DNA from: Amphiscolops sp. MND2022
Taxonomy: Eukaryota
Length of the DNA stretch: 64,000 nt
NCBI GenBank assembly: GCA_964187785.1
Contig: OZ076409.1
Coordinates: 24,120,001 to 24,184,000, forward strand
Direction: 5' to 3'
The notes under the pieces were generated by a model, which was not told the origin of the DNA, did not search any database, and saw only the letters and a list, made by a program, of their open reading frames with translations. Positions 2,855-38,600 of this stretch are shown piece by piece. Numbering within the stretch: the stretch's first letter is position 1; the number at the start of each line of letters is the position of its first letter. The translations under genes and the position numbers were made by a program.

Positions 2855-2857
2855 TTT

Positions 2858-8900: not shown

Positions 8901-9536
8901 TTTAACCCTCCTGGTGCACCCCATTTTGGTGGTGTATGGGAGAGATTAGTTAGAAGTTGCAAAAAGGCAATGGTGGCTATATTGGGTAATCGATCTCTTA
9001 CAGATGAAGTTTTTTTGACAACTATGTGCCTAGTGGAACAAACATTAAATGCGCGTCCTATTACTCTAGCAAGCGATGATCCCGAAGATCTGGAAGCACT
9101 TACACCGAACCATTTTATTATTGGTCGAGCGAATGTTTGCATTCCCTTTATTCCAAACGCAGAGGTTTATGCTAACCATAGGAAGATGTTTAGATCAAGC
9201 CAAGCTTTTGCAGACATGATTTGGAACAGATGGGTGAACGAATACCTTCCTCAGAACAATGTAAGAGCACAATGGAACAAGTCAGAGCCAAATATTCAAG
9301 TTGGAGATCTTGTTTGGCTGATAGAAGACAATGTTAGGAGGTCTCACTACAAGATGGCGCGAGTCATGGAAGTATTCCCTGGAAAAGATGGTATTGTGAG
9401 ATCAGCACTAATCAAAACTGTCGATGGAACCCTGAAACGACCTGTGGTTAAACTGGCGCCACTTTTTGAAAAGCGTTTTCGAGCTGAAAACGGGGCCGGC
9501 ATTGTTGGCCCCTCAAAATTTGTTCCGAAAAATTGA
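2952..9536 (+). pseudogene. BEL-1 gag-pol polyprotein, broken by stops and frameshifts
   Basis: Pieces 2952-3368, 3390-5516, 5513-6640, 6742-8865, 8970-9536. Motifs: [16 protein letters not shown] (DUF1759 gag), three Cys/His knuckles, protease ALCDTGS, RT FYMDD, RNase H HIFSDAS, integrase GMDYFGP/ISDNGTNF/GGVWER. The reading frame runs into the 3' LTR. Confidence 0.93.
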
Positions 9537-10652
9537 AGGAAAAATAAGTCGAGTTAGCCAATTTCAAAATGCTGTAAAAATGTGTAGAATTGAATTTGAG
9601 TGCTAGTTTTCGCCCAATCGACATATTTTGACCCAAATGAGAGATTTAAACTATAAAATCGAAAATCGAAGCCAAAAAATTTTCAATTCCCCTCTTACGT
9701 CCCATTTTGGATTTCTTTTTCAAAGTCAGTGTATATTTGGACTTTATTCTTTGTTTATCGTATTTAACTTAATATGAACTCCATATTTGGGCTACGTGGG
9801 TGTCTCTAGGACCCATGAGGACTATTTGTCAACTTCACTGAGTATTTCACAGCAAATAACATGTGTAAATGTATGCCTTAATCTTGCTTAAATGTATGCC
9901 TTTTATATATACTTTTACATATTTTGGTATACCTCTAGCCCAATTAAATAGTTTGTTTCTGCTTATTCTATATATCAAGGCGCTTGTATGGTGATGGTAA
10001 ATTTAACCACAAACATCCGCCATTCGGTATTTCCTGTATGATAAAGTAACCAGAGTTAACTCCTACTAAGACACACAGCAACCAAGTAGAGATTCAAATC
10101 AGTCGACTTTGCTACTCAAGTATTGAAGAAAGTGAAAGCTTGGAAGTTTCTCGTACAATTAATTCAGTTAACTCTGGCTATTGAAGAGCTTTTTTTGAGT
10201 TGAACAAGTGAAATTATATTGTTTCGAAATTCCAACGTCAATTTATTATATTGCATATGGTTGCGATATTTTTGCTTGAGAAAGATATCGTGGACACAAG
10301 GTTTGGTATCAATCAATTGGTTTAGCAGATCAACAGAAGCTACTCTTCATCAGGACAGCTAAGTTGATTCCTATAGTCACAGTTTAAAGCTACTTTATGT
10401 TTGCGAAACAGAATAAGTACAAAGTCAAAGATGCAGTAATTGCTTCACCGACTTCCGAAACTTATTCAAAGTAACGCAAGCTAAACTTTTCATTGAAATT
10501 AGTTGCGAATCACCTATTGAAGGTTCGTGATTAGTGGTTTTTGCAAGTGCCTTTCCTGGACAAATCAGATATAGAAATTGTCCGCAAGTTGTCAACCAGG
10601 CCGTCGTAAAGCTTGGTAAGTGTTTCTGTTAGTTTACCTTGCAGACGCAAAA
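9503..10652 (+). repeat. BEL-1 3' LTR
   Basis: Starts TGTTGG right after the purine-rich GAAAACGGGGCCGGCAT; matches the 5' LTR through ...CAGACGCAAAA. Confidence 0.95.
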
Positions 10653-14600: not shown

Positions 14601-17600
14601 TGTAACAACAACCACCTCGCCAGGTAGACATCTTTCAAAGTTTGGCATTCAAGGTGTACGAAGTTGTAACTAAAGTTCAAGCTAGTTTGTAGTTAAGTTG
14701 AAAGTTTTCAAGGAATTGGTAATCGCATTGTTGGTAGAAGAATTGTCTAAAAAGTAGCGTTTTGCGACTTCTTAAAAATTATCAGCCACTCTTTATATCA
14801 TTCCTAAGTTTATTACTGCTGCTGGATAACAGAGGAACACGAGGAAAAAATCCTGAAAAGTTCATGAAATGACCTGTAGAATTCTGGAAAAAACTAGGCG
14901 AAAGTGAATCTGTACTTTCCATGCAAAAAGTGATGAAAGAGAATTGTTGACAAGTTCAAGTTCCAGTTGATTTTGCAAGGAAAGTCAGGAAGAATTAGCA
15001 TTTCTATCGAAAAAAAAATCAAAATTCATAGCAGAGAAAATTCGTGTTTTGTTCGAATAAAAATCTCAAAAGTTTGATTCTTTTGAAAGCTTCTGCAACC
15101 CGAAAAAGAGCAATAGTTGAATGCATTAGTTCTACTGGAAAAAGTTCTAACCCTTCGGCTGGAGATAAGGATAGCACTTAGCCATACACCAACAGCAGAA
15201 AAGGCCCATAAAAAGCGCCCAAACGTCTCTTGTAATTTAGACACGTACAAGTATATTCAGTAAAAGTATATAATATAACTATATCGATTCTGGTATTTAA
15301 AGCTGCTCAAGATGGTTACAATGTGAACACATTTTGCTCAGAATTTCCTTTGACTCGGAATAATCAAAGGCGATGCAATTCTGTTAAGTATATGAAAGGA
15401 TATTAGGACATATATTCTATATTTTGACACTCAGGGCGTCTATTAACCTTAGAGTCAGGAAACCAATAATAGAACAGTTTCGCCGCTCCATAACAAAGAC
15501 CCAGTTAGTGTTTAGTGTTTCAGCCAACAATAATATTAATTGAAAACTCTGTCTACATAAACAAAAATTGAACTTGCATGTTTTTTCATGTCTGAAGATA
15601 CAGCTATTCGACAAAGAAAATTCTCAAGAATGGTTGATATTCAAATTTACAAGCTGAAATGTACATAAAACTTGAAGATATGGGAAGTTGAACCATAAAA
15701 TCAATACATCAAGCAAAAGAAACGCGAACACATTTTTTTTTATGCCTAAGGGTGGCGCCAATTAATTCATTTTATGTTCCGGGTTGGAGCTCAAAATATA
15801 AAATTGCGAGAAAAACATTCTTTTCTGGTTTCAATTTTCGTCTCACCACCAACTGTGTTTTATTCTGTGATTTATGAAAAACAACAACATGCTATACATT
15901 GAAAGAACAAAAATTTGATGAAAATAAGGAGTGACCCATAAAACAAAACGAGGATATTTTAATCACATGTAACGTCCACCAGTAAAGTACCAAAATTTCG
16001 TTCAAAAAGTCGAAAAGGTGCGAATCAAAATGGCCGACCTAGCAGGTCGTTGAAATCGAAAAGGACGTTAAGAAGAACGAAAAACCCGCCCAAGAAGCCC
16101 CAACCCAAACGCCCCCGACCCAGGAGAGGAAGAGAAGAGACGCCCCACCATGAATAGACACGGAAAAACCAGGAATTGTGTCATCTCACCCAGTATTTGC
16201 AGGTTCCAAATGAGGAAATGATCCAGAATCCAGATATCCCATGCTTGAAGAACATGAAGAAAACCGCAGAATCAGTGGAAATATGTCAGAAGTGTTTATT
16301 TTGATTATTTCAGATGTTGTTAACATTGATTTACAGATGTGCGGTGATACTGGATCTGCTAGATCCCTGTAATTGGTACTTTAGAGAATGTTTCCCCAAT
16401 AAAATGAGTATGGACTAAAACCCCAGTTTTCGGACCTCGGAGGTATGTAGGATCGCAGGAAGCCTTTAGGACCGTTTTTACGTGCTTGTGGGACGTGTCC
16501 GGACTTTGAGTGTGCCGGCACGTCGCCACGGAGCTCTAATATGAGGAGTCTCCTCAGCGTCTTGGAAAAGTCCCTGCAGAGACCATTTGGGACCAAAAAC
16601 TAATGTTTAGGTTGTTATAAGACATTGGTCTCTTGTTAAGGCAACCTGGGCATTGTCCCAGTTCTGGAATGTAGCTGCTAGCTTGACGTTACATCTAGGA
16701 TAATTTTTATGGCGCCCCACAAGGGACATTTTTTCCATCTTTTCGCCATAATTGGAGTTTTTCCTGCTTTCCGGCCCTGCTAGGTTCGGATCTAGGAAAT
16801 TCTTCTGGTGGGTCCTAGATTGTTTTTATTGCCTTATGCTAGCCCTGTGGGCCTTGTACTAGTGTTTTGCCTGTGTTTCCTGCATGTTTTTGGGGTCTGG
16901 AATGAGAAATAACCGTGTGATTACAGAGTACCGTTTCCATACCGTTTCTGATTGTCGAAATTAACCATCAGGCTTCACCGGATTGTGTTTTAAAGGGTCT
17001 TCTAGCCTTGTTTCAGCTTAATTGCAATGTATGGGGACCAGGAGGACGAGCACTGAAGGCCCCAGCTAGCTGACGACAGTAGGTGAACCCCTGCGTCATC
17101 GCACCTCCGTCACCCCCGTGATTGCAGTATACCCACGACAATCGGGTGAAATCCCTTCTTTTCTTAGTTAAGAAGCCCAAAAAGCATATTCCCAGGCCTA
17201 TTCCCACTAAATTAACTGGAAAGAATACCCTGAGGGTGTTTGAACCAGTTGATTGAAAATTTGAGCGCGAAAACCTGAAAAATAATGTAAAATAAGGCTC
17301 AAACAGTGATTTTACAGATTTTGAAAGTCGAAATTTTGTAGAAAAGAGTACGGCCAGTGGGAATACATGAAAAACGTTCCATCAGACCTGCCAGGTCAGG
17401 AACAGAAAAATTTTCTGGGCTAAATAGTTGAAACATCGAGAAATTTAGCGATTTTTGTCGAAAAAACATCAAATTTGGCCAAAAATACCAAATTTGGTGA
17501 GGGCGAAGCCTTGGGCGTTTGTTCCCAAGCTTTTAGATCAGCCCAAAAACATTATTCCCGAGCTTGGTAGTACAAAACACTACTGCCAAGACGATTTTTA

Positions 17601-20600
17601 GCATCCCCCAATAAAAATTGAAACTTTAACCCTTGAATTTCTTTGATATGCATAGACCTGAGTGGAGGACTCCATAGACGTGAGAGTTATAACATCAAAA
17701 CTAATAATTGAAACCACCCCATTCCCCTAAATCAAGTTGTTACACCTTCTAACACTACTATTAGAACCATTCGGAACGTCTGAGAACAAAGAAATAAAAA
17801 TGTCTTGGTGAAAATACGTATTTTCAGTACTGTTCCGAGAGTGTCAAAGGTGCAACTTAAAGTTTATTTTGAGAGACCTTATTTGGAACCTGCCAGGTTT
17901 TGCTGGCCTATTTTCTGTTAGTACAGAGTATAACGTTGCAAACGCAGAAAACCGCGAGTGATTCCAACCAGTAGTTGCCGAGAAATAGCCAAAAACGTGT
18001 TATTTTTGTGACATTTTCGGAACACTGGAGTAGTGTACCCAAGATAGGTCGAAATCTCTCCTGGTAGGAGTAGCCCAGAACGGATAGCACCATCGTGTAG
18101 ACCGCAAAAAGTTACGTTAGTGGTGTAATTTTCGTAGCGCTACCATTACTAGTGATCGAGAAATCTTAGCCGCAGTTTTGCTCAAAAATGATCCGAAAAT
18201 GTCAAAAAAAAATTGAATTTTAGTTGAGCATAGTGCAATACCTTGCAGGTATCCCAGCACTAAAATTCTTGCATTTTCGTACATACGGCACTAGATCCCG
18301 ACGATTTGTGCATTTTTAGCAGCTTGCTACTGGCCAACTTGAAGAAATTGACAATTTTGTGAATTTTAATCCCTGAAAGTGACATACAGGGTACATCATA
18401 GTTTTGTCGACTCGGATTGCGGAATATTGATCTGGGCACCCCGCTGACTTATTTTTTTGTTACGTGGGCATAATTGACGCTCGCATACAAAATTTCAGGT
18501 AGCCAGGAAGCCTAGAAAGCGAGTTTGACAGACTTGTGTGAATTTCACAACATTGTAGGATTTTGCAATAACATTGTTGAGCGACCCCAAGTCACGTGCA
18601 AACAATTTTAGCGCAATCGGTGGTGATTCTCCCACGATTTGGCCACAGTAGTATACCGTGTTAAATTTTCAGGTCGCTACTAGCTCTAGAAGTGATTTTC
18701 ACCTGTTCCAGGCGTGCGTATTGACGAAAAAGTCGCTGATTTTGGGAATTTTTGCAAAAAATAGCATACCTTTCGTAGGTAAAGTTGCAAGTGAGGACTC
18801 AAACAACCCTAGTTCAGCACCACTCGCCCATAGCACATCCTGTTGAAGCAATTGGAATAGAGCTAGCTCAACCCTAACATCTTGGGTTCGTGGAAAGATT
18901 GTCAACGAGACGTAGAAGCGAAAAACACCAAAATCGTGTTTTCTCAGTTAACAGCCACCAGAGTCACCTAAGTGCGAACTGATAGTTGTAGCCACGCATA
19001 CTTCGAATACGAAGCATAGTGTGAGAACCAGGACGCATTTAGGAGTTTCCCACGAGACTTAGACTTAGGACGCGCTGCGTCTCGCCAAAGTACATTAAGT
19101 ACAGTAGCACCAGAAAGTGTGAAGAACTGTGTTTCCATTGATCTTATAATGATCAGATTAGTAAAACTCTCTTGTTTGTTAGTCTCCTAGCACCTACTCA
19201 CCCCCAAGGTCTATCCCCGAGTTCTCTATTAGCAGCAACCCTACCTGTGCTCTCCAATTGACGGGCAGCGCGAGTAATAAAGAGTACGTTCAAAGAGTGC
19301 TGAGTGGTGATTTCTTGAATAAGTCTCCGAAAAACTCCGCTAGCGTACCAAAACCTTTTCTGTTTATTCCAATCGCCTAGCCTGCGGCTGGATCGAGTGT
19401 AGCTTAGTGTGAATTAGCTTTAGCATCCTTAAGTAGGACATCAAAAAAAAACTTATTTACTGACTTTTGTAGATTATCTATCTCCAGTTAGTGGGGAAGA
19501 AAACGTTTCTGTTTTGATTAGTGGTGATTAGCACCAGTGCATGTAATCTTGAGTTAGTGCATGTAATTTTGAGTTAGTATATGTAACCTTGAGTCTGAAG
19601 TTTGTAAAAGCCAGCTAATCTTGACTTAGAACCTAGAGGGCAGGCACAAGCTACAAGCTCAGAAACTTAATAGTAAAATAGTTTAGTTAAAACTCTTAAG
19701 GAAGTGACACCACAACTTCCAATTTAAATTGACTTCGATCTCATTTGTTGAGGGGAAGGAGTGAGCGAAGGACCAGAGAAAAGTTTTGCTCAATAGAAAC
19801 GCAAGAAATCAAGCAAGCGAAATGAGTTTGAGCGAATGGGAGTATTTGATACCCTTGAATGAAGCATCTTGGGAGTCAGATGGCTTTCATGCCACCAACC
19901 CAATTGCGAGAGACATAGAAGAGTTAAGTACGCTTAGTACACAAGCCGAAATAGCAACGCCGGATGTGATCGCCGACATATTTTTAGACAACCTCATGTC
20001 AGATAACCTGTCTAACGTTGAGCAAAATTCGCGAATCGCACAATCAAGCCAGCAAAGTTCCTCGCAAGCGTCTTCGGACAGCGCTGAACTTGCCAATGAG
20101 ACTCCCATGAACCGTAATAATGTGTGGCCTCCTCTGAACACCTCCGTGATCATGACCGGGGACTGGCCGAACTCGAATAGAGAACTAGCTACTAGCTCGG
20201 ACATCAGTAAATGGGTCGAGAATATGAACGTGGGCATGACTTTGGGAGAAATCACACCCCACTTGGGCACGAGTGTAGACCCACTGGATTCCGGAGCACC
20301 AGCATTTGGCACTAAAGGAGACACATTGGAAGACACTGCTGTGGTTCCGTCAGGAACCCAACTGGGAAAGCGGAAGACCAGAAAAGAAGTGGCTCTCCCG
20401 AATTATGCCTTAACTACACCACCACTGATGAATCCCAGCACCTTGCAACTGGAACGCACGACAACGTCCCAACACTCTGATGCCGGCAGTGTGGCATCCC
20501 CGAATTCGACGATTGCCAGAGGCATCAAGGAGACTGAGGCCATAAGGGAAGATTTTGGACGCAACATGGAACAATTGAAACAAGTCCAAGTAAAGCTGGC

Positions 20601-23600
20601 CCAGGAGAATAATAACCATGTCCGGCAGGCGGAAACCCTAGTGATGGAAATGGAAACGTTGCGAAAGGAAGTAAGCGAGATAAAGATGGAAGGACGTGTC
20701 AACCAGGGCAAAATAGAAGCGTCCATGGGATCCATCAAAGACCTGACTGAGAAACGCATATCGGAAATGACGGCAATAATGATGCAAAGGGATCACCAAG
20801 CAGATGAGCGCCTGAAGCATATGTCCGAAATGATGCACCGCAGAGACTTAGATGTCGATAAACGCATAGTGGACCTTATGACTACGGTACAAGACTTAAC
20901 CCTAGGGGTGAAAACAGTGGTAGCGACGGTACCAAACCGTCCTTCACCTGTGCCGGTGGCACTAAATTCTGCAGACGTACCATCAACAAGTGCGTTTCAT
21001 ACCCAGCATCCCACCTATCGAGAAATTGCCCAACGCCAAAGTGTGACGAAAACTGATCAAACGAATCAACCAAAATTGCAACCACCAGCAATGTACAAGA
21101 AGGTGCCCGTGAAAACCCAAGTTTCGACAGCCAATCGTACTGAAGTGCAACACTGTGATATATCTGGCCCTCCTTCATTCGATCCCTATGCCAGAGGTGC
21201 CTCCACAACAGGAGACTACTACTCGGCAGTCAGTAGCCAAATGCCCAATGACATAAAGACAGCATCGGGAAACACTGAATATCAAACTGCCGTCTCATCA
21301 ATGCTTGGCACAGAACGCCCAGCAATCTCCTACGGTAACAATCAACTACGGCCGTTAACCTCGAGCACGCAGAGGAAGGCAACTTCGAGAAGAAACTTGA
21401 ACACAGCAACAGTGGTAGAACCTGCTAAAGATAGCACTCCAAACCCCATATATAGTCAAACGCTAGCAGAAGCGATAACAACAGCGATGTCCAAAGGCCT
21501 GGAGCCATTGCTAGCGGCGAAAGAAACCAAAAATAAACCAACCAAGTATCGTGGCACACGTGACGGAATAGTAGATGGTTGGCTGATGTTGATGAAGCGA
21601 TATCTTCAGAAAGCCCATGCGAAAGACACTCCATTGGACAAGGCATGGACTATTGTGGAATTCTTAGAAAACGAGGCACGGGACTATATTACGAACAAAT
21701 CTGAAGCGGAACGCGATACTGATGAAAAAGTCTTCGCGCTGCTAGCACGAAGATTTGGAACCGGGTCTAACAAGATCCAAATACAACAACAGTTCCGCAC
21801 ACGTAATCAGTCTCCAGATGAGGATTACATGCAATATCTGGATGCATTGGAAGGTTTGCGCAGCCAAGGTTTTCCCAACGAGGAAGTTGCGGTAAGACGC
21901 TACGAAATCATGCAAAGATTTATCGAAGGTGTACGCAGCTTCGAATTGAAGCGCAACCTCGCACTCATGTATGCGCAAGAACAGTATGTGGACACACCCC
22001 CAACGGTAGAAGCCCTACGATTCACGGTACAACAGTACCTGCGCATGCGTGGTTCAGCCCGTTTGGAAAATTATCCTGCACCACAGCAACAACAACAACA
22101 GCCGCCTGTCGCAGCAAACCAACAAAACCAGATGCAGGCACCGGCCCCGCAAGCGCCTGCTGCCCAGCACCTCCCACAACAACCTGCGGCTTTCAGACAA
22201 CAACCGCAGCGAACATGCTTCAACTGCGGAGACCCCTCGCATTTTGTAGCCGATTGTCCTTTGAAGGATCGAGCACGGAAACCAGTACAACAAGCAGTCA
22301 ACTCATGTCGCACGAACCTAGCCGGAGAGTGGGTGTGCCCATCGAACCCACGCGGCATGAATGATGATGTAATGCCTGCAACTCTACCGGAACAAGGAAC
22401 ATCAGCATTTTGCGTCAATTGTGGTCACACCGGCCACGTGGCATCTGATTGTATGATGCCTGACAACGTTGCAACAGAAGAACAAGTGAAAGCGGCGTGG
22501 TACGCCCCGGGCACAAACTCCACGGGCTTTCGAGACACTGAGGACCAAGTAAGAGTGATCTCGACTTCGGAAGAAGGAGGCCCATCACGTCCAGTGGTTG
22601 TGACTTGCGGCGAGAAACAGATCCTAACGACGCTTGAAGCCCCAGCGCCTGATTGTACGGAGACGCTTATATCCATTCATCTATTGTTATCCGCAGAGCA
22701 GAGAGCACGACCCAACCTTACATTGGCTCAATTGAAAGAAGAACTTTGCCGCAACACCAACCTCACCATAGCTTCGAGACCCTTGCCACATTTCACCAGA
22801 AGTGATGAGACCAAGCTAGCCCCAATACAGAAGGTCAAGACAATCGCACCAGTCCCCATAGCGATCACGGTTGATGGTGTAGACATGAGGTTCGATGCGA
22901 TTGTTGTCCTGGAAGGACACTTTCCGCAACGCCTATATTTGGGCAGGCAAGAACTACGTTGCTATAACATTGGAGTGCAGGATGCACAAGGAGAGGCACA
23001 AATTGATGAGCGAGCCTCGCTAGTCGTTGCATTCGGAACCCCTCTGCAAAAGCCGATACCACTCTTCGGCATGATAGACACCGGTTCGGGAGTCTCAATT
23101 CTTTCTTTGAGTGCGTACAAGAAAATCGCATCCCCGCATGAGTTGAACTTGTCGCCATATGACATTGAACTCTTCGCTGCCAATGGCAAGAGCATCACGA
23201 CCGTTGGTATCGCAGAAGACGTAAGCTTTCAACTTGGCGGATACACTCTGAAGACCAACTTTGTAGTCATAGCAGATCACATTGGTTCAGAGGATTTCCT
23301 CTTGGGTCGAAATTTCTTGCGTACGTACAACGTATTGGTGGATCTAACGGCAATGAAAGTAACCATCCGAGATCCCAAAACGCCTAGAATCTTCAAAGCC
23401 GTTCATGAGGTAAGTGAACACGAACCATCATTTGTCATTTCTGCCGAAGAAGTAGTCCTAGGTCCATTCGAAAGAAAAATTGTGCGCGCGAAAATCATCA
23501 CGCAACAACCCGATGAGTTTCATTTTCGTAACGTAATGGTCCACTCATGTAACATGAAATCCAAGTCGGTCTTTGTTTCAGAAGATACACTAACCTCCGT

Positions 23601-26600
23601 GGGAGCAGAGGGTATGATTTTCGTAGCCCTACGAAATCAAACTGACAAAGAACGGGTAAGGATCAAAGCACAGACTGTAATTGGCAAAGCGGCGCTCACC
23701 ACTTTTGTATTGAACTCTGTTCCTTTGCAAAATAGAGGTGATGATTCGAAGCTTTCAGTGGAATTTGTAAATCAAGTGCATAAAGATATAGACATGGACA
23801 CTAGTTCAGAATTTAGTTCCTTTGCCCAAAACTTCTTGTCTTCGACTGAACCGTCTGAGGTAGATTGGTCAGAGAGTGAAAAGCGAAAGCGAACAGATCC
23901 TCAACTGCTAAAAGCAATCCCAGGCCCTGACCTCTCTTCCGTCTTTTCTTCATGGGGGAAGAGGCGAGAGACAAGTTAGAGACTATTTTAAATGAGTACG
24001 AAGATCTATTCATGAAAAATAAGTCTGACATAGGTAGGTGTAAGATTGCAAAGCACAGAATAGAGCTAGAGCCGGAGGCTATACCACACCGAGAAGGAGC
24101 AAGGCGAATGTCCCCTGATAAGGCAGCGAAAGCCAATCAGGAAGTGCAAAATTTGCTGGCCCTTGGACTGATACAACCCTCCTATTCTCCGTGGGCCAGT
24201 GGCATAGTCATGGTAAAAAAGAAAACAGGCGAGCTTCGCTTTTGCTGTGACTTCCGCCCGCTAAATGATGTAACAGTAAAGGACGCATTTCCATTGCCCA
24301 GGATTGACGAAAGCCTCTCGAGAATTGGGAATGCAAAAATCTTCACGAGCATTGACTTAGCGTGGGCCTTTTGGCAGATCCCGCTGAAAAAGCGCGATCG
24401 CAGAAAAACCGCCTTCGCGTGCGAGCTCGGCCTGTTTGAATGGCGACGCATGCCCTTCGGGCTATGCAATGCATCGGCCACTTTTCAGCGATCCATCACT
24501 CGAGCTCTACAAAGAATACAGCAACGACATGGAAGTGTGCATACATTGACGACATAGTAATCGCGACAGAGACCATTGAAGATCATTTGGAAAGAATCAA
24601 AGAAGTATTCGAATGTCTCAGAGAGGCCGGTTTCAAGATGCGAGCCGAGAAATGTGATTTCATGCGCACTGAAACCAAATACCTTGGAAGAGTAGTCTCT
24701 GCCGAAGGCATAAAGCCAGACCCGGCTGCCGTAAGCAAAATCCAAGAGTGGATGCCCCCAAGAAATAGAGAAGAGCTACAAAGCTTCCTTGGATTCGCGA
24801 ACTACTACCGAGACTTCATTCCTTTTCACGCTGCCAAAGTACAGCCTATGCAGGAGTTGTTAAGGAAGAACCAACACTTCCACTGGAAAGAAAGACATCA
24901 AGAAGCGTTTGATTCAGTGAAACAGGCACTAGCTGACGCCACAGCTTTGGCAGCCCCAAACGATGAAGGACGTTTTGTTTTGGACACAGATGCCAGTGCA
25001 GTTGCTATAGCCGGCATACTGCACCAAGAACAAGAATACAATGGGAAAACCATTCTTCGTCCCATCGTTTATGGTAGCAAGTCGCTGACTCGAACACAAT
25101 TGAATTATGGCGCCCCGAAACTGGAAATGTTTGCGGTTTTCTATTTCATTGAGAAGTTTCATTCCTACCTTGCAGGTCGAGAATTCACGCTGCGCGTGGA
25201 CAACCAGGCTCTCTCGTGGCTGAAGACATATTCAATGGATCAGGCCATGATTGGACACTGGATTGCGCGCCTCGACCAATATCACTTCAAGACGATCCAC
25301 AGACCACGCACGCAACACCGAAATGCAGACGGTCTTAGCAAAAGGACCAATGATTACGTGCATCGGGAGAAGATTGTGGAAGCTCTACCAGAAGTGAGCA
25401 AAGGATTCAGCTTTATGTCCCAGTAAGACTACGAAGAACTCCCAACTGTGCCATATATTGATAAACATGGAAAATTCATACCGAACCATCCGGAGCTTCC
25501 GCCAGAAGCTCGGGCACAACTCCCTGTATTATACATCTTGAAGAAGCGACCGAAGGAAGATTTAACCTCGGATCAGTCTTTGAGTTCCATACCATGGTAT
25601 CCACAGATACAGTGGGAAACCACCCCGACATCAACCGAAAATGACAGACCAAGTTGTATCCTTAGCGTAACAACCAAAGTGCCAGCGGCACGTCTCGATA
25701 CCACCCAACGCGACCCAGCGTTGCGCAGATTGCCAACGAACTGTCAAGAACAGGCTGATATCCTCAGGCTAGTCGGAACTGAACTTCACGAGCACCAGTC
25801 AACGATGCGTGGCCTGAAGGATTTACATCTAGCTCAAAACAGAGATGTTCACCTCCTAGCGCTGAAGAAGCTCATGAAGAACGAGCCATTGGATGACGCT
25901 TTGTTCCCCGAGGATGTGCAAGATTTTGCCAAACGGTACTTTCATCAGAAAAAAGACCTACTGTTCCTGAACCAAAATGACATTTTATGTGTCAATTACA
26001 TTCCGCAGCAACGCGCGATGCACGTACGACCGTGTATGATTGTCATGCCCCAGCTCTACCAGCATGAAATCTTGTACAGAGCGCATGATGAATCAGGACA
26101 CCAAGGCGTTGGCAAAGTATTGGCGAGGATACAAGAGCGCCACACTTGGCCAGGCATCAAGCGTGATGTCGTCAATCATATTAAGCATTGCTTAACATGC
26201 CAATAGACGAAGCATCCCGCTGGGAATCCCTGTTACCCCCTACAGAGTATCAACAGCAGCAATTTTAATGATCTGGTGCAATTTGACCATTTGAAATTGT
26301 GCAAGACAACGTCAGGAAATAATGGATTGCTAGTCATCATCGACCATTTTACCAAGTTTGCAGAGGCAATCGCATGTGCACACGATGAATATGACGCACA
26401 GACGACTGCAAAGATTATCCTAAGCAAATGGTTCGCAAGACATAGCACTCCTGCCAGAATGCAGTCTGACAACGCCACCAATTTCACTGCCGAAATTGCT
26501 CAAGAATTGATGAAAGCTTCGCAAGTAACCAAGGTAACGTCTACTCCAGCTCATCCGAGAGGCAACGGTCTAGTGGAACGCCAGAACCGAACGTTGCTTA

Positions 26601-29600
26601 CCCTGCTCAGAGTTTACACGTCACGCAGGATGTTTGACTGGGATGAGCACATAGACGGAGTCTTGGGTGCCTACAATTCGACCAGACATGCAACAACAGG
26701 ATTTTCCCCGTACATGCTCCAACATGGCGCGGAAAAGTCCATTCCGCTCTCATTCATATACCCAGAATTCGCAGCACGAGAATTCGAATCCAAAGAAGAA
26801 TTCGTAGAGCACCTACTTGCTAGACAACAAGAAATCCACGAGCTTGTCCGCCGAAATACTCATCAAGCGCAAGTAAGACAAAAACAGAAGTTCGACAGAC
26901 ATTTGAAGGCAAAAGCTCATGCCGTGGGTGATGCCGTTTGGGTTTTTTGCCATATAATTCCCAAGGGTGGTACCCGCAAACTTCTGCGTGCCTGGCGTGG
27001 ACCTCACAAGGTCACGGATGTGTTGCAAGATGGAAGATTATATGTGCTAGATACAGGTCAAAAAGTTCATTCCGTGCGTCTGAAGAAGCATGTGCCAGCA
27101 CCATGGGATTGGGCAGCACATCAACCCTTTGGGTTGGACCAGAATGTCGCCATCATTGCAGATCCGTACGTGGAAGAGAGCAATGAGGAGATAACGTCAG
27201 ACATATCCCGTGACTCATTCCTTCCAGAACAGCTGCCGGAAGCATTGTTCGAAATGGAACCAACCGCGCCTGTCCCACCGCGCACGATCCAGACGCGCAC
27301 TCAATCTGCTTTGGAACAAGGAATCCCACGTAGACGATTTAGTCACTTCGGATATCCGTCTGAATCTGACTCTGACCGAGAATCCATGAATCAACCCATT
27401 GAAGAAGAACAACAACCAGTTGTTTATCCCGAACTCGATGACTTGGAACCGCTATACTCATACCAAGAAGAAGTCTTGCCAAAACCACTACCAAGTCTGA
27501 TACCCTCACCATCAGGAACGTCCGCACCATTACTATCGAACCCAGCTTTAACCGACACATTGAGCAATTTCCCACTGTTCAGTTCTCGAGCTGCTAGCTC
27601 GGTAGGACTAGAACTTGCCGAAGAAGTTGAACCCCAAGAAGGAACTGACAAGGAAATACAAGAACCCAAGCAAAGTATGGAAGCATTACCCCCATCAGGA
27701 AGAATCGCAAATAGAAGAGGAAGACCAAGAGGCAGACCTCAAGGTCGTAGAAGAGGAAGTGTCACTTCATCAAGTCAAGCCCTTACAAGAACTAGCAGAC
27801 CATATACCAGATCAAGAGGCCGAGAAAGAATCAGAGCTCAGTCTAGAACCTTGGAACGTGCAATGACACTACCCAACATTGCGGAAAGCACGTCACCAGA
27901 GCAATGACAAGCGGAACAATTAAACCCCCCAAGAGCCGCACCTTATCAGCTACGACGCAATAGAGTACCTAGATACAGGTGTGGAACCTGTGGTTCCCGT
28001 AACTGCAGCTGTGTCAACCTAATCAAAGGGAGACCACCGGACCAACGATTGGCCCGGGGAGAGGACGCCTCTGCCCCTGCCTTGGCTGACACCGAGACGT
28101 TCGAGGACCATGCACAACACACTATCCGGTCCATACAAGCTGAGGATCAGGATATTCCACGAGTACTCCATATCGTAATAACAATAGAAAAGACCTACTC
28201 GAGCGTCGTACCAGGAGTGATCCCTCCGATGGAAACCACACTCAAAGCCATGCAAGGAACGTCACCCTCAGACTGTCCCACCTATCGGTTCAAGGAGTGG
28301 ACGTGGCACGAAAGGAGTGGGCTAGAATTCACGTTAGCCGCTATCATTCCCCCACTCCCACCATCGATGGTGTTTGGAAAAATAGAACCAACAGACACGA
28401 AAGTAGCAATGGTACGCTGTATCACCGCGCAGAAGCTATGGCAACAATACGGTGTGACTTCACCTCCTGGAGATGTGTATCATCCAACGACAGGATGGTG
28501 GCTACTAGTCACTTCTCTGGACGAGACATCCCCAGTGACTCCAGGAACACTATTGATCTGCTTAGAGAACTTGCGCACACTAGTGGAGTTCGATGACACA
28601 CTTTGTTTCCACCTAGCAGACATCTATCGCGGAAAATTCCTTAGTCAACATTGGTTGCAGCTACTAGCTATCACTTTCTGTCGACAAGCCAGAATACGTC
28701 TATTGGACAAATACACCTATACGTTCGAGAACCCAGTGACTGTGCTTGAAGCACTTTCCGTAGTTCATGATTGGTCTTGCACGAATTTGGGAGACAGACC
28801 CTTCCGCAGGACAGTATGGCAAGACCGAAAAGCCATTTTAGATCATCTCACGCCAAGACAAGACAATCAAAGCACTGTCACGGGAAAACTGCTGACGACC
28901 CACCCCAAATTCAAACCGAACTACCTGTCATGGATTTCCTACGAAGAAACCGACATTCTTCAAGCCCGTGGTACCGTGGCGATATGCTGTCCAGCAGATT
29001 TGCTCTCATATTCAGCAATGGCACGTTACGTCATCCGAGAATATGGTCAGGAGGAAATTTTCCGACTACGACCAACTGTGGGAAAAGCAATACGCCTAGC
29101 TAGATCACCAAATGCGCCGTGGAATAACGAAATGTTTCTAATATTCACAAGAGCCTCTAACAAGCATCCTATTCTACATGATGTGCTACATCTGTGCCTG
29201 ACTGACCTGGTACAGAAGCTTACACGAGCACAAATTACCCGAATCCACCTTCCTATCCATGATCCTGAAAGGTCAATCAACTTGCTACCAGCTTGGTATT
29301 CAATGTTGAGAGATCATTTCATCGACTCGAACATCGACATAGTTCTCCATGATAGGGTGTACGTGTCAATTGCATCTGTGAGAACATACCCTAATCAAGT
29401 CAAGCACAAGCTAGACTAAATCGCAGTGGCACCAAAAGATAGCCACTTGAAAGGCTATTTGCCTTCCTTTTTAACCTACATTTTATTTTAACCAATGTTG
29501 GAAACTAATTTTAATGAAGACCGCTGAATCTGTCTTTGTTAAGTGTTTTTACTAGGTCAATTGTATACCGTGTATTCCTTCTTGCGTTCATGTGAAAAAA

Positions 29601-32600
29601 TCTTTTTAGCCTAAATCAATGCTGGTTGTTTTTCAGTTCAGTCCTGCCTGTTCGCCAGCACGCGACACCACCAGCAATACTACTAATAATTTGCAGTTTG
29701 TAAACAACCACACTCCATTAAAGGTGCTACCATTTTCTCTGATGGATCAATCATCCCGAAGCCGACTTCCATGTCCACCCAGGCCAGTATCTTCCTCGTC
29801 CTCGCTGACTGTCGCAGAGCCCCAAACTCGAACCGACCAGCTTGGTCTCACCCAGACGAACGCTCAACTAGACGTCTCGCCAACACTAGCCACCGGATTA
29901 GCTATGCTGACCGCTCAACTGCAGACTCTGCAAACACACCCGGACTTCACGCTGTCCATCTCCATTGGAATTGGCTCATACTGCCGCACAGCCAAACTCC
30001 ACAATGGAACATGGCAGGGCCATGACCTCACTCATCACTTCGATGACCATAGATCAAGTCTGCCATACAATGAACCTAATTGGCCCTCCATGGAGCAACA
30101 GCAAGTGCGACCAAATCCATCGCAAATATCCGTAGCGACACCAATCACTGCTCCCGAAAGTGCCATAGACAATCTGCCAACTCAACCAACAGCTACACAG
30201 CAATTTGTCTGTATTCTACCCACGACGCCATCACCAATGCTATCGTCGCCATTGGTTCGACCACCATCAAGCTCAATCAGTGTTAGACGCTTAGAGGACA
30301 CCAACACTGGACTCATGCTCCCTTCACCTTTCAGGGGGGAAGGGGTAGAAGAAGCAAAGGAAGCGCGCACGAATGCACAGAATACCGACAACACCACCGA
30401 AAATACAAGGATGAGCCAGAAACCGAGAGTCATAACGATGCGAAATCCATTCGACGTACCCATTATGACAGAGGTGATCGGGTCTCTAGACTCATATGAC
30501 GCCTTATTACCCTCAACGTCGTCGGACCCTCAACACCTAATAGGTTTCCAAGCCGATCCTGACTTGCACGAACAACAAAAGGAGCAAGAGAAAGCAGAGA
30601 GACAAACAGCCAAGGTCCCCATCGACCTCCGAGATGTGCTAAACAAAAAGGAGCAGAACAAGATCGAGCAACTGGCCCAAAAGAAAAGAGCCAGAGATTT
30701 GGCCAATGCAGATGCAACAAACTCAAGCCCGAATCCCTCTCCCATACAACAGCCGGAGGCTAGAAGAGTGCGATTTTCTGATGAACTCTTGTCGCAGACA
30801 GAGGCACAGCAGTACGACATTACTGCAAGAGACGCGGTGCGTCTGCAGAGAGAAGTCAAGTCAGGAAATCCAGACTCAGATTTGGACGTGCAAAAATTCG
30901 ATACCGCCACCAGCAAAGGCAATCCAGAGGATGTGAAGAACCTAGAAAAAGCATCGAATGGAATGCACTACTTGAGACCCGTGAAAAAGCCAACACTCTT
31001 GTTAGACCGCATTCCTCCATGGTTCGAGAGAGTGAGAGAAGGTCTTCACAAAGACAAATCGTCACTCGTAAAGCCACTACCGTCAAAGGTAAAACTGTCA
31101 GTACAACGACCAGCAAGATATGACGACCAACTGCTGAAAAGCAGAGATTTCATGAGGGACGTGACAACATTGCTCCCCATGGGCAAAGAAATGTTACAGA
31201 AGACAAGGATTGCCCTGCTCATGGATTCAACGATGAAGGCAACGGCGAATATGAACAACACCCTGATGGATGTTCGCGTGATGAACCTGCCCTGCACGTC
31301 GTTAGAAGAAATGACCGAGGTGACCTGCAAGGTCTTTGGTCCCGCCGTAAACCACACAGAAACCATTTCTTTTCCTCCACTCTTAATTTACAGCAACGTG
31401 ATTGATCACTTAGCCTTTCGAGCAACATTGAAGTATTTCGAAGGAGGCAACCACAGATTGACAGAGGAATTGATGACCGGCGAAGTAGCTGCATATGTTG
31501 AAGCAATGAGGACCGTAATCAGACATGTCCAGAAAAAGAAACCTACTATAGGTGTGATCTTTGTATCACCCCCTGGATATGTACTACTACCAAAGCCACT
31601 TCAACAATTTCTGTATCTAGTTTCGGAAGCAGCGTACGCCCAGAACCTGTACTTTCATATCGTAGCCCCAAACCTGAGAATTAGCGCCTTGACCTGGCGT
31701 CCCTGCGAGAACTCTTACCCTGCATTCTTGGCAGAAATCTCGAAAGCCGTGCAAGCCTACACAGGATATCAGGAAAACTCTCAATTGTTAGCCGATGATG
31801 CAACAGCCTTCGACTTTGGTATGCAAATGGCACACCGAACCTTTGACGAGAACGGAGTACGCCAAGTCAAAGGACCAAATGAAAAGGAAAAGTCAAACAT
31901 GATCGATAACGGATGGTTTGAAAAGAGAGATGAGTCGACCCTAGATGAAAAGACACACGACGCGAAGTTCCACAAAGAGCTGGTAGCTCTCTTCAAGAGA
32001 ACCGAAGAGATTAAGCAGGCTAGAACTAACGCAACAGTCTTCCCAGTCGCAACACAAGCCGTTGACTCTAAACCCAGCATGGTCTCTCCAACCCTGGTGC
32101 TGATAACAGTACTAGCCCGAAAAATAGCACGAGAAAATCGTACCAACCCAGAGCATTCTTATCAGTCTTGGCATGAGAAGCTGCAAGAAACTCTAGCAGA
32201 AGTAGCTGAACGCCATGGAATTCCCTTTCCTATTTTTCTTTATAATATATCACCGTTTTGGGTACCTACAATGGTGCAAAGTGAAAGCAGCCTGGACGAG
32301 CAGCAAATCAAATTGTACGTAGAAGCAATGCAGAGGGCCACAATTAGCGAGATTCTGGCCTACTTAATGGCCGTTGGCCTAGGCTCCTTCTACAAAGGCC
32401 CAGTACACTTGGTGCACAAACTGATTCTAGAGAAAGCCAACACCTACTTATTTAGTTTCCTGATATTCGCAAAGAACCAGAGAAATTGGGTCAGTGCCAC
32501 CCTGAATACGTTGGATCCTGCAGGCGCTTTGAAATTGCGCGCCCAACTTGCCGAGAACATAGAGACGATGTTAACTTGGGTCTACTCAACTTGGGTCAAT

Positions 32601-35600
32601 GTCTCGGGTGTGATGAGCACCTTGGATGATTCATCGAGTCAAAATCGCAATAATAAAAACCTGCCAGGTTTTCTCTTCCCGTCACAGGTAGCTAGCTTAA
32701 TGCTAGTAGAAACGGAAGACCTAGTCCCTGTGATTGCCCCCATAGTCTGGCCCATATTTGGCTCCATGATGGCGCTGCGTTATCCAACACAGCCACTCAG
32801 AGTTGCTGCCAGCACACCCACATTGTCGATCCTACACTTCGTGGATCCTGAGGATGATACCAGGCTACCAGACCTCCACACGCTTGTGCGCAGCTTCGTA
32901 AACTTCCGACCCCCAATGGCGTACACAGTCATCAAAGACCGAAAACAAGTTGAACACAACTTTGTTACCCTGATCCGAGCCAGAGCGCGGTGCGCTGTAC
33001 CTATGTCACTAGCATTCCACCCGGTGGAATGGCTACACGTACCTATAAAGCCCAACACAGGAACCGTGCAGGACTTTACCAGCTGGGATGAGCCAGGAAT
33101 CCTGAGAGCACTATCCGACGCCATACAACGACTAGGTGGAAGAAGGAAAGGCTCAACATTGGAGCAACTTCGACATAGAACTGTCAGAGACACGTCACGA
33201 ATGTATAATCCCAGAACAGAACCCCAGCCTGACACCGCTACGATCCTATCTAGCACCACGTGCTGGGCAAACCCTCCAATGATTGATTGTACAGTTCACA
33301 AAAACTATCAAACCTTAAAGGCAATCACACCGAAGATCGCCAAAGAACCTAGTCGCAAGATACTACCCATCAGCGACGAGGTGCCAAAAAATCCAAAAAT
33401 GGCAATGGAAATATTCATGAACCTAATAGCCAAGCAGAAAGAAGAAGGCAATTCAGTTTATGCTAGTTACTTGATTGCAATACAAACCTACAGAGAGATG
33501 TTTATGAAATACGGACATCTAGACCTCGCAGATCAGCTGCCAAAATTACGCCCAGCGGGCTCGACCACAGAACAGGCAGCGAGACACGAGGAGGTTTCTG
33601 CCGGTGGCAGCACGACTTCGGCAGTATCTACCACGAGTTCAGTCAACACCGTGCAGACTGCAGCAGCAACTACGACAAACATATCGACCAGCAATGCCAA
33701 CCAGATTACCCAGATGACCGACAACATCACTATCACTCAATCTGACGATACTACACAGCTACAAAACAATCTGGAAGATAGACATGGATTCCTCTCTCAA
33801 ATACAAGCAGCAGATATCGAACTGGAATTGAATGAACTCCCTAGTCTCGACCAACAAGATTTACCACAATCGGACGTGTTAACTGCATCATTGAACGAAG
33901 TACTGCAAGAACAGGATGTTGCAATGAATCAAGCTGGCCACGAATAGAAAGAAATACGGAACTCAATGAATCAAACTAAATCAAACCGACCAAGACAACT
34001 CTTACCCTAGTGCAATCTCTAAAATTATGTACTATTTTAGTATGAACCAAGCTAAAATCAAAATGAAGCAACTACTTGTAACTACCTGGTAGGTAGATTG
34101 ATCCCAGTTAGATGCCTACCCACTGTCCAATGAAGAAAGTGCAAATAAAATTTTAGTAGAAACTCTAATTCATCGACGTAGAAACTCTAAACCCAAATTC
34201 ATCGACGAGTCAACGGTTTAGTGAGTTTTATGAGAAAACTCTTCAAGTGAGTAAATTCTATGTTTTCTAAACAAGTCGAAAAGTGGTCACAGATGCAGTA
34301 ATTGCTTCACCGACCTCGGAAACTTGTTTAAACAATAGGTATTGTCCAGAACTTGAAAAGAAGGGACATTTTGAAGTTATTGAAAGTAGTGGATTTTGCA
34401 AGTGCCTTTCTCGCAGAAACAACTCAAAGACGTGCCCGCAAGTTGTCAACCAGGCCGTCGTAAAGCTTGGTAAGTGATTTTGTTATCATAACTTGCAGAC
34501 GTAAAATTTTGGTGCCGCGACCCGGGAAGGCACTGTGCGGGATTCGGTCATAATTTGATTTGCAAAAGAAAATAGAATGGCAGAGCCGATTGTACGCAAT
34601 TTGTGGGACCCCACATATATGACTTCAACAAAAAACGGACATGAAAGAAAGGTCTTTTTTACTGACTGCTTGAAAAATTCTTCCACAATGAAGGAGTGGA
34701 TAGAACACGAAAAACGCGTCTCAGATCTGATTTTAATTCTCAGAAACATAGACGCGGATTTCCAGGATCTCCATGCTCAGGATCCAACTGTTTGGGTTGA
34801 CGTTGGTAAGTTCTTTTTAACATACTCAACTTCAAAGGATAATTTGCCCAAAGAGTTTGAAATGTATCTCCCCATGCTGAAAAATAAGTTTCAAGGCAGC
34901 CGTAAGGAGATCTTGTACAAATTGGAGAACGAACTTGAAAATTATTTTGAGAATTGGAGCAAAAAGTCCTCATTTCTTGTGAGCGTGAGGTGGCTTCCAT
35001 CGCACCTGAAAAATGAAAATGACCTAATGAAGTATATGAAACTCTGCGATCAGTTTTATGACTCCAAACGAATAATTGAAGCAGAAAAAATTACAATCAG
35101 TAAACTAATCGAGCAAGGAGCGAGGTCGAGTCATGTGAAACTGGCTATCCAGAAACTTCAAGATAACAAAGCGATTCTAGATAAAAGTCTCGAAAGTAGA
35201 CGCAATTGTCTCAAGCCTGATGCTTTGACAACTCTATCACACGCCGAAAAAATTGTCACAGAAATGAACTCTATCGTTCAACAGGCAATGACTGACGCTC
35301 TGAACTATATTGATAGCTGCAATATAGCAGCAAATGATCCATTGGGAAACATAGAAACACCTGAAGTGTCTGGGTTTGAAAGTTCGAAGATATCAAAAGA
35401 CGATGAGAACCGTTCTCATGCCTTGGAAAAATCCAAGGCGAGTGAAACACTTGACAAAGGATTGAAATTGCTTAAAGAGGCAAATCAATCAACACTATTC
35501 CTCAAAATTAACGACCGGTTTGATAACCCATCTTTTCAACCTCAATCAGCTACTCTTGGATCCCAGAAAAGATTTTCTTTAGTAGACTACTCCCCTACAA

Positions 35601-38600
35601 GAACATTAGCTATGAGTGAGCCAGCAAAAAAGGCCGGTTCAAAGATAGGCTCCAATGCTTCGAAAATGAGCGAGCGAAGACGATTGGAGATACAAGCTGA
35701 TCTGATGGATCAAAAATTACAAATGGAAATAGAAAAAAGAGAACGTGAGTTGGAACTAGAGAAAACGCGTAGGGAAATGGAGAGAAATTTGGAACGACAA
35801 CAGATCGAGGAAAGGCTCCAAGAGTTGCACGCAGAATCGGAAATTGCTGATTTGAAGCGTAAGAAGGCTTTTGAAAGGCAGCAAATGCAATTGCAAATAG
35901 AAGAGGCTGAAGGATCAATTCGAGCTTCTTCAATATGTCCTAGCTTGATGTCTCTCACTCTGGAGGAGGACAAAAACAGTGACATTAAAAGTTGGTTAGA
36001 CCAAGGTGTTGAAGACTTAGATAAGTGCTTTTCGCAACCGAAGGAATCTAGCAGAGAAGTAGAAAATAAAGGTGAGTCAAGTAAACCGCTTCAAACATTT
36101 GACCACAAAAACCTATTATCGCGATCTCAAGGCCGAGGTACCAGTAAGTCACCACAGAGAAAAACCACTGGAATTACGTTTCCGAAAACAAACGCCCTGC
36201 TTCAGCAAGGCAATGAGAAACCGAAGCCTAACTATGACTTCGCGAAACCCTCATTCAAAATAGAAAGTGATTTTCCTTCCTTCACACCAGCAGTACCTGT
36301 ACAACAACCGGTACATTTTGTTCAATCAAGCTTACCTAAATTGAAATTATCTGAATTTCATGGAGACCCACTGGAATGGCCAGAATGGTCCAGTTTGTTC
36401 ACAGCTACCGTCCATAATGCGCCAATAGATGACAATGCAAAAATGAGTCATTTGAAAACACTTGTTAAAGGCAAGGCCAAGGCGGCTATTGCGGGTCTCG
36501 GATACTCAGGAGTCATGTATAGTGCAGCGTGGAATGCTTTGGTTACTAATTTCGGACGTCCACAAACGATTGTGAATGCCCAGATGAAGCAAATCCATTT
36601 CAGTCCGTTCATCAAGTCGCATGACTCAGCGGCTATTATAAAGTACGCACAGGTGATTACTACATGCGTTAATGTGTTGAAACAATTCGGATTCACAGGA
36701 GATTTGTATTCTGAGTCCGTCTTGAATTCAGCGTTGAGGAAGTTACCACCTGAATTGAAAACCAAGTGGTTTTTTCTTGCGAAGAGCAAAGGCTACTACC
36801 ACGCTGATCTTTGCAAATTTAGCGAATGGCTGAACGAAGTTGCTTATGTTCACGATGAAATGACAGTGCAATTCAAGTCTCAATCAGAGAAAAAAGGCTA
36901 CGCTAATACGGAGAAAGTGAAAACCTCAACATTTGCTGCTAATGAGCAGAGCAAATCAACATCTGCATCAACAAAGCAATGTCCATTGAAGGATGGCGAC
37001 CATAAAATCTGGATGTGTACGAAGTTCAAACAACAAGGTGTTAATGAGAGATACGAAACACTGAAGAAATATAAACTTTGTTTCTGTTGTCTAAATTCAC
37101 ATTTGATGAAGGACTGCAAGTCGGACAGAGTTTGTGGAGTAAATGGATGCACCAAGAAACACAACAAGCTGTTGCATTCGGATTCTCCTAGAACCGAAAA
37201 AGATAAGAAATCGGAGGAACCCTTGTCTCAAAACAGGGCCGGCGGTTCTTCAATGCTCTCAACAGGTAGCAGTGGTTTCTTACAGTTGATACCAATTTCA
37301 ATTGGAAATGAGAAACGAAGCGTTGAAACGATAGCTCTTTGTGATACTGGATCCACGGTATCATTTATGGACAAAACTTTGGTCAACCTTTTGAAGCTGA
37401 AAGGTAAAGAATCCGTGATGTCGGTAGCTGGAATTCATGGGCTATCTGACATGAAGACTGAAATTGTTACCGCCAGAATTGGTCCAAGTGAAACAGATAC
37501 TGCGGGAGAAGAACTGGCCTTCTGCAGTCACCCAAACTTGAATGTCGGTGACAAAGTCTACGATTTTACAAAATTGAAAGAAATTTATTCCTATTTGAAA
37601 AATTTGCCGGATATAAAGGTCTCGATGGCTGATGTCAAGGTCATTCTTGGTCAAGACGCGTATCACTTGATCAGACCTCTTGAATATAAGTCAGGTGATA
37701 GGAATGAACCTTGGGCGGTCAAAACTTCTTTGGGATGGACAGTGAGTGGAGCCTTACCCAAAACAGAAACAAACTGTTTGGGAGCAACGTGTAACCTCTC
37801 CGTGTCTTCGGATCCTTTAGCGGATCAAATGAAGAAATGGTGGGACATGGAGACATACGCGTCTGTGTGTGATGTCTCAGGACGTTCTAAGGAAGAAAAG
37901 AGAGCCCAGGCAATCTTGGAAAAAACTACCAAGCATAACGGCGAACGTTATGAAGTAGGACTCCTCTGGGCCGATGACAACGCTTACTTGCCGAACAACT
38001 ATTATTCTGCTTACCAACAGTTTCTGTCAATGGAGAGAAGATTAAGTAAGGATTCAGAGTTGAAAGAAGCTTACAAAGCTACCATTGAGAAAGACTGAGA
38101 AAATCATTTTGTACGGAAACTGGAACAGGAAGAAATTGTGAGTACAGAGAATGAAATGCAATGGTATTTACCTCATCATCCGGTCAAGCACCCACACAAA
38201 CCAGGCAACTTGAAGGTCAGAAGAGTTTGTAACGCAGCTTCAAAGTTTAAAGGCGTTTCTTTGAATGACAAACTTCTCAGCGGACCTGATTTGTTGCGAA
38301 ATTTGGTTGGAATTGTTTTTAGGTTTAGGGAACACCAAATAGCTATTACCGCCGATATCGAGTCCATGTTTTTGCAAGTAGCAGTTCCAAAAGAGGAATG
38401 TAAAGTACTTCGTTTCCTATGGCGTGATAGTCATGAGGACAGCATCGGAATCTTCGAGTACAACAGACACGTGTTTGGGGCAAAAAGTTCTCCAACTTGT
38501 GCGAACTACGGATTCCAACAGGGAGGAAGAGACAACAAAGTCGATTTTCCTTCAGCAGCATCGACCATAGATAGAAACTTCTACATGGACGATTTAGTGA

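Follow-up and report, generated by a model that had tools for sequence, protein, structure and literature searches.

The stretch analyzed here, called the window below, comprises 64,000 nucleotides of the Amphiscolops sp. MND2022 genome (GenBank assembly GCA_964187785.1, contig OZ076409.1, positions 24,120,001 to 24,184,000) and holds a very large long terminal repeat (LTR) retrotransposon between positions 15968 and about 34164. Our main finding is that this element is a 3'-truncated, broken member of a young Ty3/Gypsy family, belonging to a lineage with a conserved and unusual layout. Besides a standard Gag-Pol, the lineage encodes extra domains with predicted enzyme folds: a protease-like repeat, two macrodomain-like repeats after the integrase (IN), and an SGNH-fold domain in a second open reading frame (ORF2). 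We regard it as probable, if well short of certain, that these domains serve as non-catalytic binding modules of a recently amplified element.

A recently amplified Ty3/Gypsy family

Pfam searches of the window recovered CCHC knuckles, protease (PR), reverse transcriptase (RT), RNase H (RH) and IN in Gypsy order (PR-RT-RH-IN), and full-length copies carry paired TG...CA LTRs, a primer binding site (PBS) and a polypurine tract (PPT). The window copy has no 3' LTR; a family devoid of LTRs was considered and rejected, as LTRs are present in the full-length copies. The closest solved relative of Pol is Ty3 Gag-Pol (E 4e-107), ahead of caulimovirus (1e-47) and foamy virus (2e-37). The assignment to Ty3/Gypsy is a ranking by similarity rather than a placement in a tree with reference clades.

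The original prediction, made from the letters alone, had set a Gypsy element of more than 18 kb at 15968 to 34168. Its start is exactly where a 726-bp LTR begins, and the giant Gypsy is real, but intact members of the family measure about 19.2 kb, with an internal region of 17.7 kb, and this copy breaks off at about 34164: the last ~270 bp and the 3' LTR are gone, and a BEL/Pao element starts there, its own 5' LTR truncated. A short local duplication marks the junction (34160-34192), which resembles a microhomology-repaired deletion that would have taken the Gypsy 3' end together with most of the BEL 5' LTR.

Searching the 1.07-Gb host genome with a 1.5-kb ORF2 probe brought up 560 candidates, and all 40 of those scored are 98-100% identical; an LTR probe gave 3,625 candidates, 40 of them scored. 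Since the LTR pairs of full-length copies are about 99-100% identical, amplification of the family was recent. All 15 further own-family copies that were fetched contain the tail and the ORF2 region; because they were picked by an ORF2 search, they demonstrate a constant layout and not the frequency of ORF2. Some elements stand head to tail in tandem and share one LTR, the next unit belonging in one case to a different family.

Table 1. Features of the Ty3/Gypsy copy, in window coordinates
Feature	Positions	Strand	Evidence or remark
5' LTR	15968..16693	+	726 bp, TGTAAC...GTTACA; matches both ends of full-length copies
Spacer, LTR end to PBS	16694..16709	+	16 nt; folding predicts base pairing of the first 8 nt with U5
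PBS	16710..16727	+	18/18 to host tRNA-Lys(TTT) 3' end plus CCA
Untranslated leader	16728..19821	+	3.1 kb, 15 ATGs
Single Gag-Pol-tail frame (ORF1)	19822..29419	+	broken in window copy
Gag capsid-like region, two CCHC knuckles	21466..22584	+	Pfam zf-CCHC E 9e-8, PNMA E 0.003
Protease-like repeat without DTG (probable pseudo-protease)	22585..23004	+	hhalign to the element's own protease
Aspartic protease, DTG motif	23005..23385	+	Pfam Asp_protease_2 E 5e-4; ASPRV1 E 3e-5
Degenerate dUTPase-like domain	23416..23715	+	weak: dUTPase chains E 0.35-1.6, sole non-protease matches
RT, RNase H, ~230-aa insert, integrase	24050..27097	+	Pfam; Ty3 Gag-Pol E 4e-107
Low-complexity linker ending in small Cys cluster	27098..28012	+	sequence; linker dN/dS 0.15-0.35
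Macro-like repeat 1 (degenerate, weaker)	28358..28726	+	structure match Z 7.3; dN/dS 0.06-0.09
TARG1/DarG-like macrodomain, repeat 2	28913..29362	+	Foldseek E 9e-10; Z 18.0
ORF2	29619..33947	+	unbroken, 1,442 codons; probable shared start 29745
Splice-acceptor-like pyrimidine tract plus AG	29625..29636	+	precedes ORF2; sequence by eye
SGNH-fold domain of ORF2	31197..31769	+	Z 9.7, rmsd 3.8, 182 aligned to PAF-AH
ORF2 C-terminal part, conserved, mostly helical	31770..33500	+	predicted structure; dN/dS 0.055 between two outer families
3' untranslated region remnant	33948..34164	+	homology stops at BEL/Pao junction

The Gag-Pol frame and selection on its modules

ORF1 of the window copy carries three in-frame stops and shifts frame twice, near 23960 and near 24540. 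Two copies of the same family have unbroken ORF1s of 3,219 and 3,220 codons, other copies break at different places, and public data hold many unbroken relatives of about 3,000-3,100 aa. The single Gag-Pol-tail frame is therefore observed rather than reconstructed, which bears out the ancestral frame of about 3200 codons proposed originally; a programmed gag-pol frameshift was rejected because unbroken single frames exist.

Ratios of nonsynonymous to synonymous substitution rates (dN/dS) were calculated pairwise between natural unbroken copies, many of the distant comparisons being saturated. They amount to 0.03-0.07 for the protease, 0.03-0.05 for the protease-like repeat, 0.06-0.09 and 0.09-0.17 for macro repeats 1 and 2, and 0.055-0.14 for the SGNH domain in two nearer comparisons (0.22 in the most distant one, which is nearly saturated). 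These sequence comparisons show purifying selection on every module.

The protease-like repeat had been proposed earlier, and hhalign relates it to the element's own protease (E 0.0018, against 0.2-0.5 for controls); it has no DTG motif. The proposal thus stands in part, the score being marginal. A scan of viral and metagenome contigs with the protease region found no related loci. Between RNase H and integrase, an insert of about 230 aa (25310-26030) is conserved (dN/dS 0.06-0.16) and has no Pfam match.

A lineage with and without ORF2

Relatives of ORF2 occur at 79, 58 and 29% identity, each with many copies in the host genome. Six diverged elements were fetched first; five of them are 18.9-19.0 kb long with LTRs of about 720 bp and the same layout, and the sixth is disrupted by an insertion. 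Four further ORF2 elements agree, and the layout persists down to about 48% Gag-Pol identity, as expected of the conserved retroelement lineage that had been claimed and not of a chance chimera. A profile search returned 584 representatives at E <= 0.001, the best 150 of the 584 being mostly fragments. One ORF2 homologue and one tail homologue find their best host-genome match at only 30% and 50%, respectively, and for this reason the lineage probably occurs in other hosts too; homologues seemingly from other hosts carry the same replacements of catalytic residues. With the tail homologue as query, a scan for related loci found one 1-kb contig.

Elements picked by a search with the tail revealed a different situation: six of eight are 14.8-15.4 kb long, have no ORF2, and are about 86% identical to the window element in pol. 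Five of these six possess an unbroken ORF1 of 2,999-3,116 codons, and their LTR pairs are 99.4-100% identical. Because these are young, intact sister families of about 15 kb, ORF2 is dispensable in cis. The original prediction had taken copies devoid of ORF2 or the macro tail as a sign of a chance chimera; this sign is present in part, as the six sister elements do lack ORF2.

In an RT-IN tree of 17 elements and a BEL outgroup (a quick version with SH-aLRT, an approximate likelihood-ratio test, as sole support measure, and with one disrupted element left out), the ORF2-less elements fall, together with ORF2 elements, inside a clade of support 100 whose inner branches are weak; every lineage outside it has ORF2. 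Faint ORF2-like traces appear in two of the three ORF2-less elements checked (E 0.002 and 0.004). Judged from these sequences, loss of ORF2 in the sisters is a simpler reading than recent gain. The rate of synonymous substitution (dS) between the window family and an ORF2-less family changes sharply along Pol, from 0.97 in RT to 0.10-0.26 from RNase H to IN, and this unevenness points to recombination between the two families.

Could the assembly be a chance chimera, or decaying passenger DNA? The window copy is broken and truncated, and there are sister families with no ORF2, as such an origin would predict. Against it, families about 48% identical in Gag-Pol share the layout, dN/dS is far below 1, and ORF2 is unbroken in many copies; we give this explanation practically no credit and count it as already refuted.

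Priming, element ends and target duplications

The leader, announced as about 3 kb, measures 3,094 nt from PBS to gag and is 76-83% conserved in the nearer families. The distance from LTR end to PBS is 15-16 nt in the window element and in each of the 17 others scored. In the outer families it fits a host tRNA-Arg (18/18), and in the window tRNA-Lys(TTT), so that the primer has been switched. The host genome contains large tandem arrays of tRNA-Lys(TTT) and tRNA-Arg genes and numerous copies with variant anticodons, TTA and TCA among them. Folding predicts that 7-9 bases of the spacer pair with U5 in 11 of 14 elements (z -2.0 to -3.6; window, -2.3); the three outermost elements show no such pairing within a 36-nt window, and one of them pairs in a longer fold. 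An Rfam search gave no match. The idea that the spacer belongs to the LTR was rejected, as the target site duplication (TSD) directly adjoins the CA. In fly and mouse LTR elements the PBS lies 0-5 nt from the LTR, a range perhaps limited by program settings (LTRdigest paper, PMC2790888).

Twenty-nine insertions of the window's family were examined. The TSD is an exact 3 bp in 23 of the 25 scored, one of them by eye, and 4 bp in the other two; one 5'-truncated copy, two tandem copies and the window copy were left unscored. For other families the figures are 3 bp in 12 of 14, 4 bp in one and none in one (three insertions unscored, one left out). A 3-mer would match by chance in about 2% of cases at 37% GC. 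LTR retrotransposons usually, though not by definition, make TSDs of 4-6 bp, and the mostly 3-bp duplications of this family fall outside that norm. The short TSD and the displaced PBS, like the dUTPase-like domain and the splice-acceptor-like motif, were absent from the original prediction.

The macrodomain tail

Of the two macrodomain-like repeats claimed, the second is confirmed by predicted structure while the first is marginal. Residues ~205-354 of the tail model match TARG1 with a Foldseek E of 9e-10 (Z 18.0, root-mean-square deviation (rmsd) 2.2, 137 aligned), and DarG is matched at Z 15.7. For repeat 1, residues 20-135 match macro-like N-domains of aminopeptidases at Z 6.5-7.3, and a match to PARP14 macro1+2 covers residues 18-354. 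Searches of the tail in Pfam and NCBIfam gave nothing meaningful and in PHROGs nothing, the tail profile hit only TARG1 among PDB sequences (E ~0.4), and the single macro 2 sequence produced only a chance match there. In the ESM Atlas, matches to the tail stayed under 0.9, and one cluster had Macro on 15% of its members.

The catalytic pair of TARG1 is Lys84 and Asp125 (PMC9411070). Repeat 2 does not preserve it: in the HMMER alignment, the Lys84 position holds Arg in 65 of 74 rows and Lys in 3, the Asp125 position holds Ser in 43 of 63, and the Gly-Cys-Gly loop has become Asp-Pro-Glu. An Asp is kept in 85 of 89 rows at the usual adenine-binding position.

Viral macrodomains are among the fold matches of the tail, which would suit decoys against host defence as proposed originally, directed for instance at PARP signalling or small-RNA silencing, and the dispensability of ORF2 in cis is what one expects of a shared, trans-acting suppressor. 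An ADP-ribose decoy needs an intact pocket, however, and this pocket looks remodelled; moreover, at dN/dS values of 0.03-0.17 the modules change slowly, and whole domains give no hint of an arms race. We consider decoys distinctly unlikely.

ORF2 and its SGNH domain

The separate ORF2 of 1442 codons claimed at the outset is indeed open from 29619, but a Met common to related families at 29745 gives 1,400 codons; ORF2 is unbroken in many copies. An acceptor-like motif precedes the shared Met in 11 of 11 elements inspected by eye, in sequence only. The structural model has a mean confidence (predicted local distance difference test, pLDDT) of 64 overall and above 90 in its core. Its residues ~100-290 match SGNH proteins, which make up the list of matches, 15 chains reaching Z >= 8 with a best Z of 9.7, so that the SGNH-like fold put forward for ORF2 is confirmed by predicted structure. 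The OSK domain of Oskar is among the matches (Z 7.8). Pfam and NCBIfam searches gave nothing meaningful, the ORF2 profile matched no PDB sequence, and the ESM Atlas had none. A Foldseek search with the whole model gave no match from PDB or the viral libraries at E <= 0.001 and hence no env fold, a result that does not exclude env.

With blocks assigned by motif and secondary structure rather than by residue-level superposition, the block I Ser is kept in 14 of 15 rows and the block III Asn in 25 of 28, followed directly by a conserved Asp-His; in block II the Gly has gone, and in block V the His has given way to Arg in 33 of 41 rows and persists in 2. The complete Ser, Gly, Asn and His set of SGNH hydrolases is thus missing. 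The original prediction had all modules seemingly losing their catalytic residues. Canonical ones are replaced, but the loss is incomplete, as the SGNH domain retains both the nucleophilic Ser and the Asn of block III.

ORF2 might instead be a functional substitute for env, acting in membrane engagement or cell-to-cell spread. It has the position of env, the acceptor-like motif and one conserved hydrophobic stretch (hydropathy 2.0-2.3), and a membrane role has been suggested for esterases of transposable elements (PMC5408684, PMC3905857). That stretch holds prolines, though, the N-terminus is low-complexity, the predicted domains are SGNH and helical, and families devoid of ORF2 amplify well; we attach very little likelihood to an env function.

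Binding modules or enzymes

Several points weigh against pseudoenzymatic binding modules. The hhalign score of macro repeat 1 is 0.002 to repeat 2, close to those of an unrelated SGNH control (0.007) and of reversed repeat 2 (0.022). The protease-like repeat aligns over its C-terminal 38 columns only. The OSK match ranks 20th, level with numerous active SGNH enzymes. Both Ser and Asn of the SGNH domain are conserved, and about 570 conserved aa of ORF2 have no assigned fold. Splicing and trans-complementation of ORF2 are predictions. Finally, SCO6735, an ALC1-class macrodomain that has neither catalytic residue, is still active (PMC7050489, PMC9411070), so an active enzyme is conceivable here as well.

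The modules might therefore remain enzymes with altered chemistry, an ADP-ribose eraser acting on protein or nucleic acid and a Ser-dependent esterase. The conserved Ser, Asn and Asp-His, the Asp at the adenine position, the precedent of SCO6735 and the strong selection on the modules all speak for this. The triad His is nevertheless replaced, and the ZfL2-1 esterase is inactive when its His is mutated (PMC3905857); both Gly-rich loops of the macro pocket hold bulky or acidic residues. Retained enzyme activity is unlikely on this evidence, without being negligible. The binding modules that we favor are inferred from the combination of predicted folds, replaced residues and selection.

Other elements in the window

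Two related BEL/Pao elements lie at 1707-10652 and 34192-42285; their coding parts are 75-86% identical, and within each element the two LTRs are about 99% identical. In both, the LTRs end in ...AAAA and not in CA, and a primer site of the TGGTG type follows after a few bases. At 61471-61769 there is a near-perfect 299-bp palindrome (97%), probably a miniature inverted-repeat transposable element, and several further inverted-repeat and minisatellite elements occur within 42400-64000.

A possible mode of replication

The element would replicate by the standard route of particle formation, tRNA priming and integration. Synthesis from the tRNA primer passes through the spacer before it reaches U5, yet in integrated copies the terminal CA stands directly beside the TSD; the extension must therefore be trimmed, and a PBS 15-16 nt from the LTR implies an unusual end-processing by integrase. 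The right end of the cDNA would carry 15-16 extra bases. In the simplest case integrase itself would make the cut 15-16 nt inside this end, though a partner nuclease might do so instead, and integrase would join with a 3-bp stagger. In chromoviruses, a chromodomain sits C-terminal to the integrase, the same place as the macro pair, which is likely to act as a tether between the integration complex and chromatin, protein or nucleic acid, and not as an ADP-ribose hydrolase. The protease-like repeat probably tunes protease activation or maturation in a polyprotein that needs no frameshift. ORF2 is likely expressed env-like from a spliced RNA, as its upstream motif predicts, and probably uses an inactive SGNH fold of the Oskar type to bind RNA or particles; the ORF2-less sister families may borrow it in trans. 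Possible, if on balance doubtful as a whole, is the fuller proposal of an undescribed Gypsy lineage that combines removal of a 15-16-nt extension, a 3-bp stagger, a dead TARG1-like tether in place of the chromodomain and an Oskar-like RNA-binding ORF2 exploited in trans.

End-processing by integrase and target stagger are seen as nearly fixed in LTR elements, and this lineage offers a natural variant of both. Structure-based LTR finders built for a 4-6-bp TSD and a PBS close to the LTR would tend to overlook such elements or to classify them wrongly. Families with and without ORF2 that apparently recombine in one genome also provide a built-in comparison for accessory ORFs of retroelements.

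Comparison with known systems

The element shares with Ty3/Gypsy (Metaviridae) the TG...CA LTRs, tRNA PBS, PPT, Gag-PR-RT-RH-IN order and a Pol closest to Ty3; it differs in its 19 kb, mostly 3-bp TSD, PBS 15-16 nt from the LTR and pseudoenzyme modules. Literature searches on macrodomains in Gypsy, LTR elements with a 3-bp TSD, SGNH together with LTR, and giant Gypsy turned up neither this layout nor any paper that deals with macrodomains in Gypsy elements or with 3-bp TSDs in LTR elements, most subscription papers and Repbase Reports lying outside the scope. Set against the literature, and not against Repbase, Dfam or GyDB, it appears to be a variant of Ty3/Gypsy that is new in layout. Poa1p-like macro domains may be annotated in some insect Gypsy polyproteins.

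The planarian Burro/GYPSM1 elements are likewise very large and Gypsy-like; they encode one polyprotein of many domains, in which a dUTPase-like domain separates PR from RT (PMC6431247). They exceed 30 kb and have an ORF1 of about 5,000 aa with MATH, BIR, BCL2, ankyrin and an in-frame env; here we find 19.2 kb, about 3,220 aa and no BIR, BCL2, MATH, ankyrin or env match in Pfam, and the 17.7-kb internal region is below the 20-kb cut-off for 'giant' used in that paper. The part of its text at hand mentions no macro or SGNH domain ('macro', 0 matches).

Vesta/Juno of bdelloid rotifers are LTR elements with a GDSL/SGNH ORF downstream of pol, in the place of env (PMC5408684). Catalytic residues are intact in those ORFs, whereas the domain described here has other residues in place of His and Gly and is embedded in a protein of 1,400 aa; in the available part of that paper, inactive GDSL derivatives are reported for the Penelope-like Athena-L only. 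With TARG1/DarG (ALC1-class), repeat 2 shares the fold, and differs at the Lys84 and Asp125 positions, in the replaced glycine loops and in being fused after an integrase, in a probable tandem pair. Oskar OSK, an inactive SGNH domain that binds RNA (PMC5785220), likewise has the fold with an incomplete catalytic set; at 9% identity this is an analogy only. If our reading is true, the pseudoenzyme theme known from Oskar also applies to a mobile element, in which dead enzyme folds are used repeatedly and kept by strong selection.

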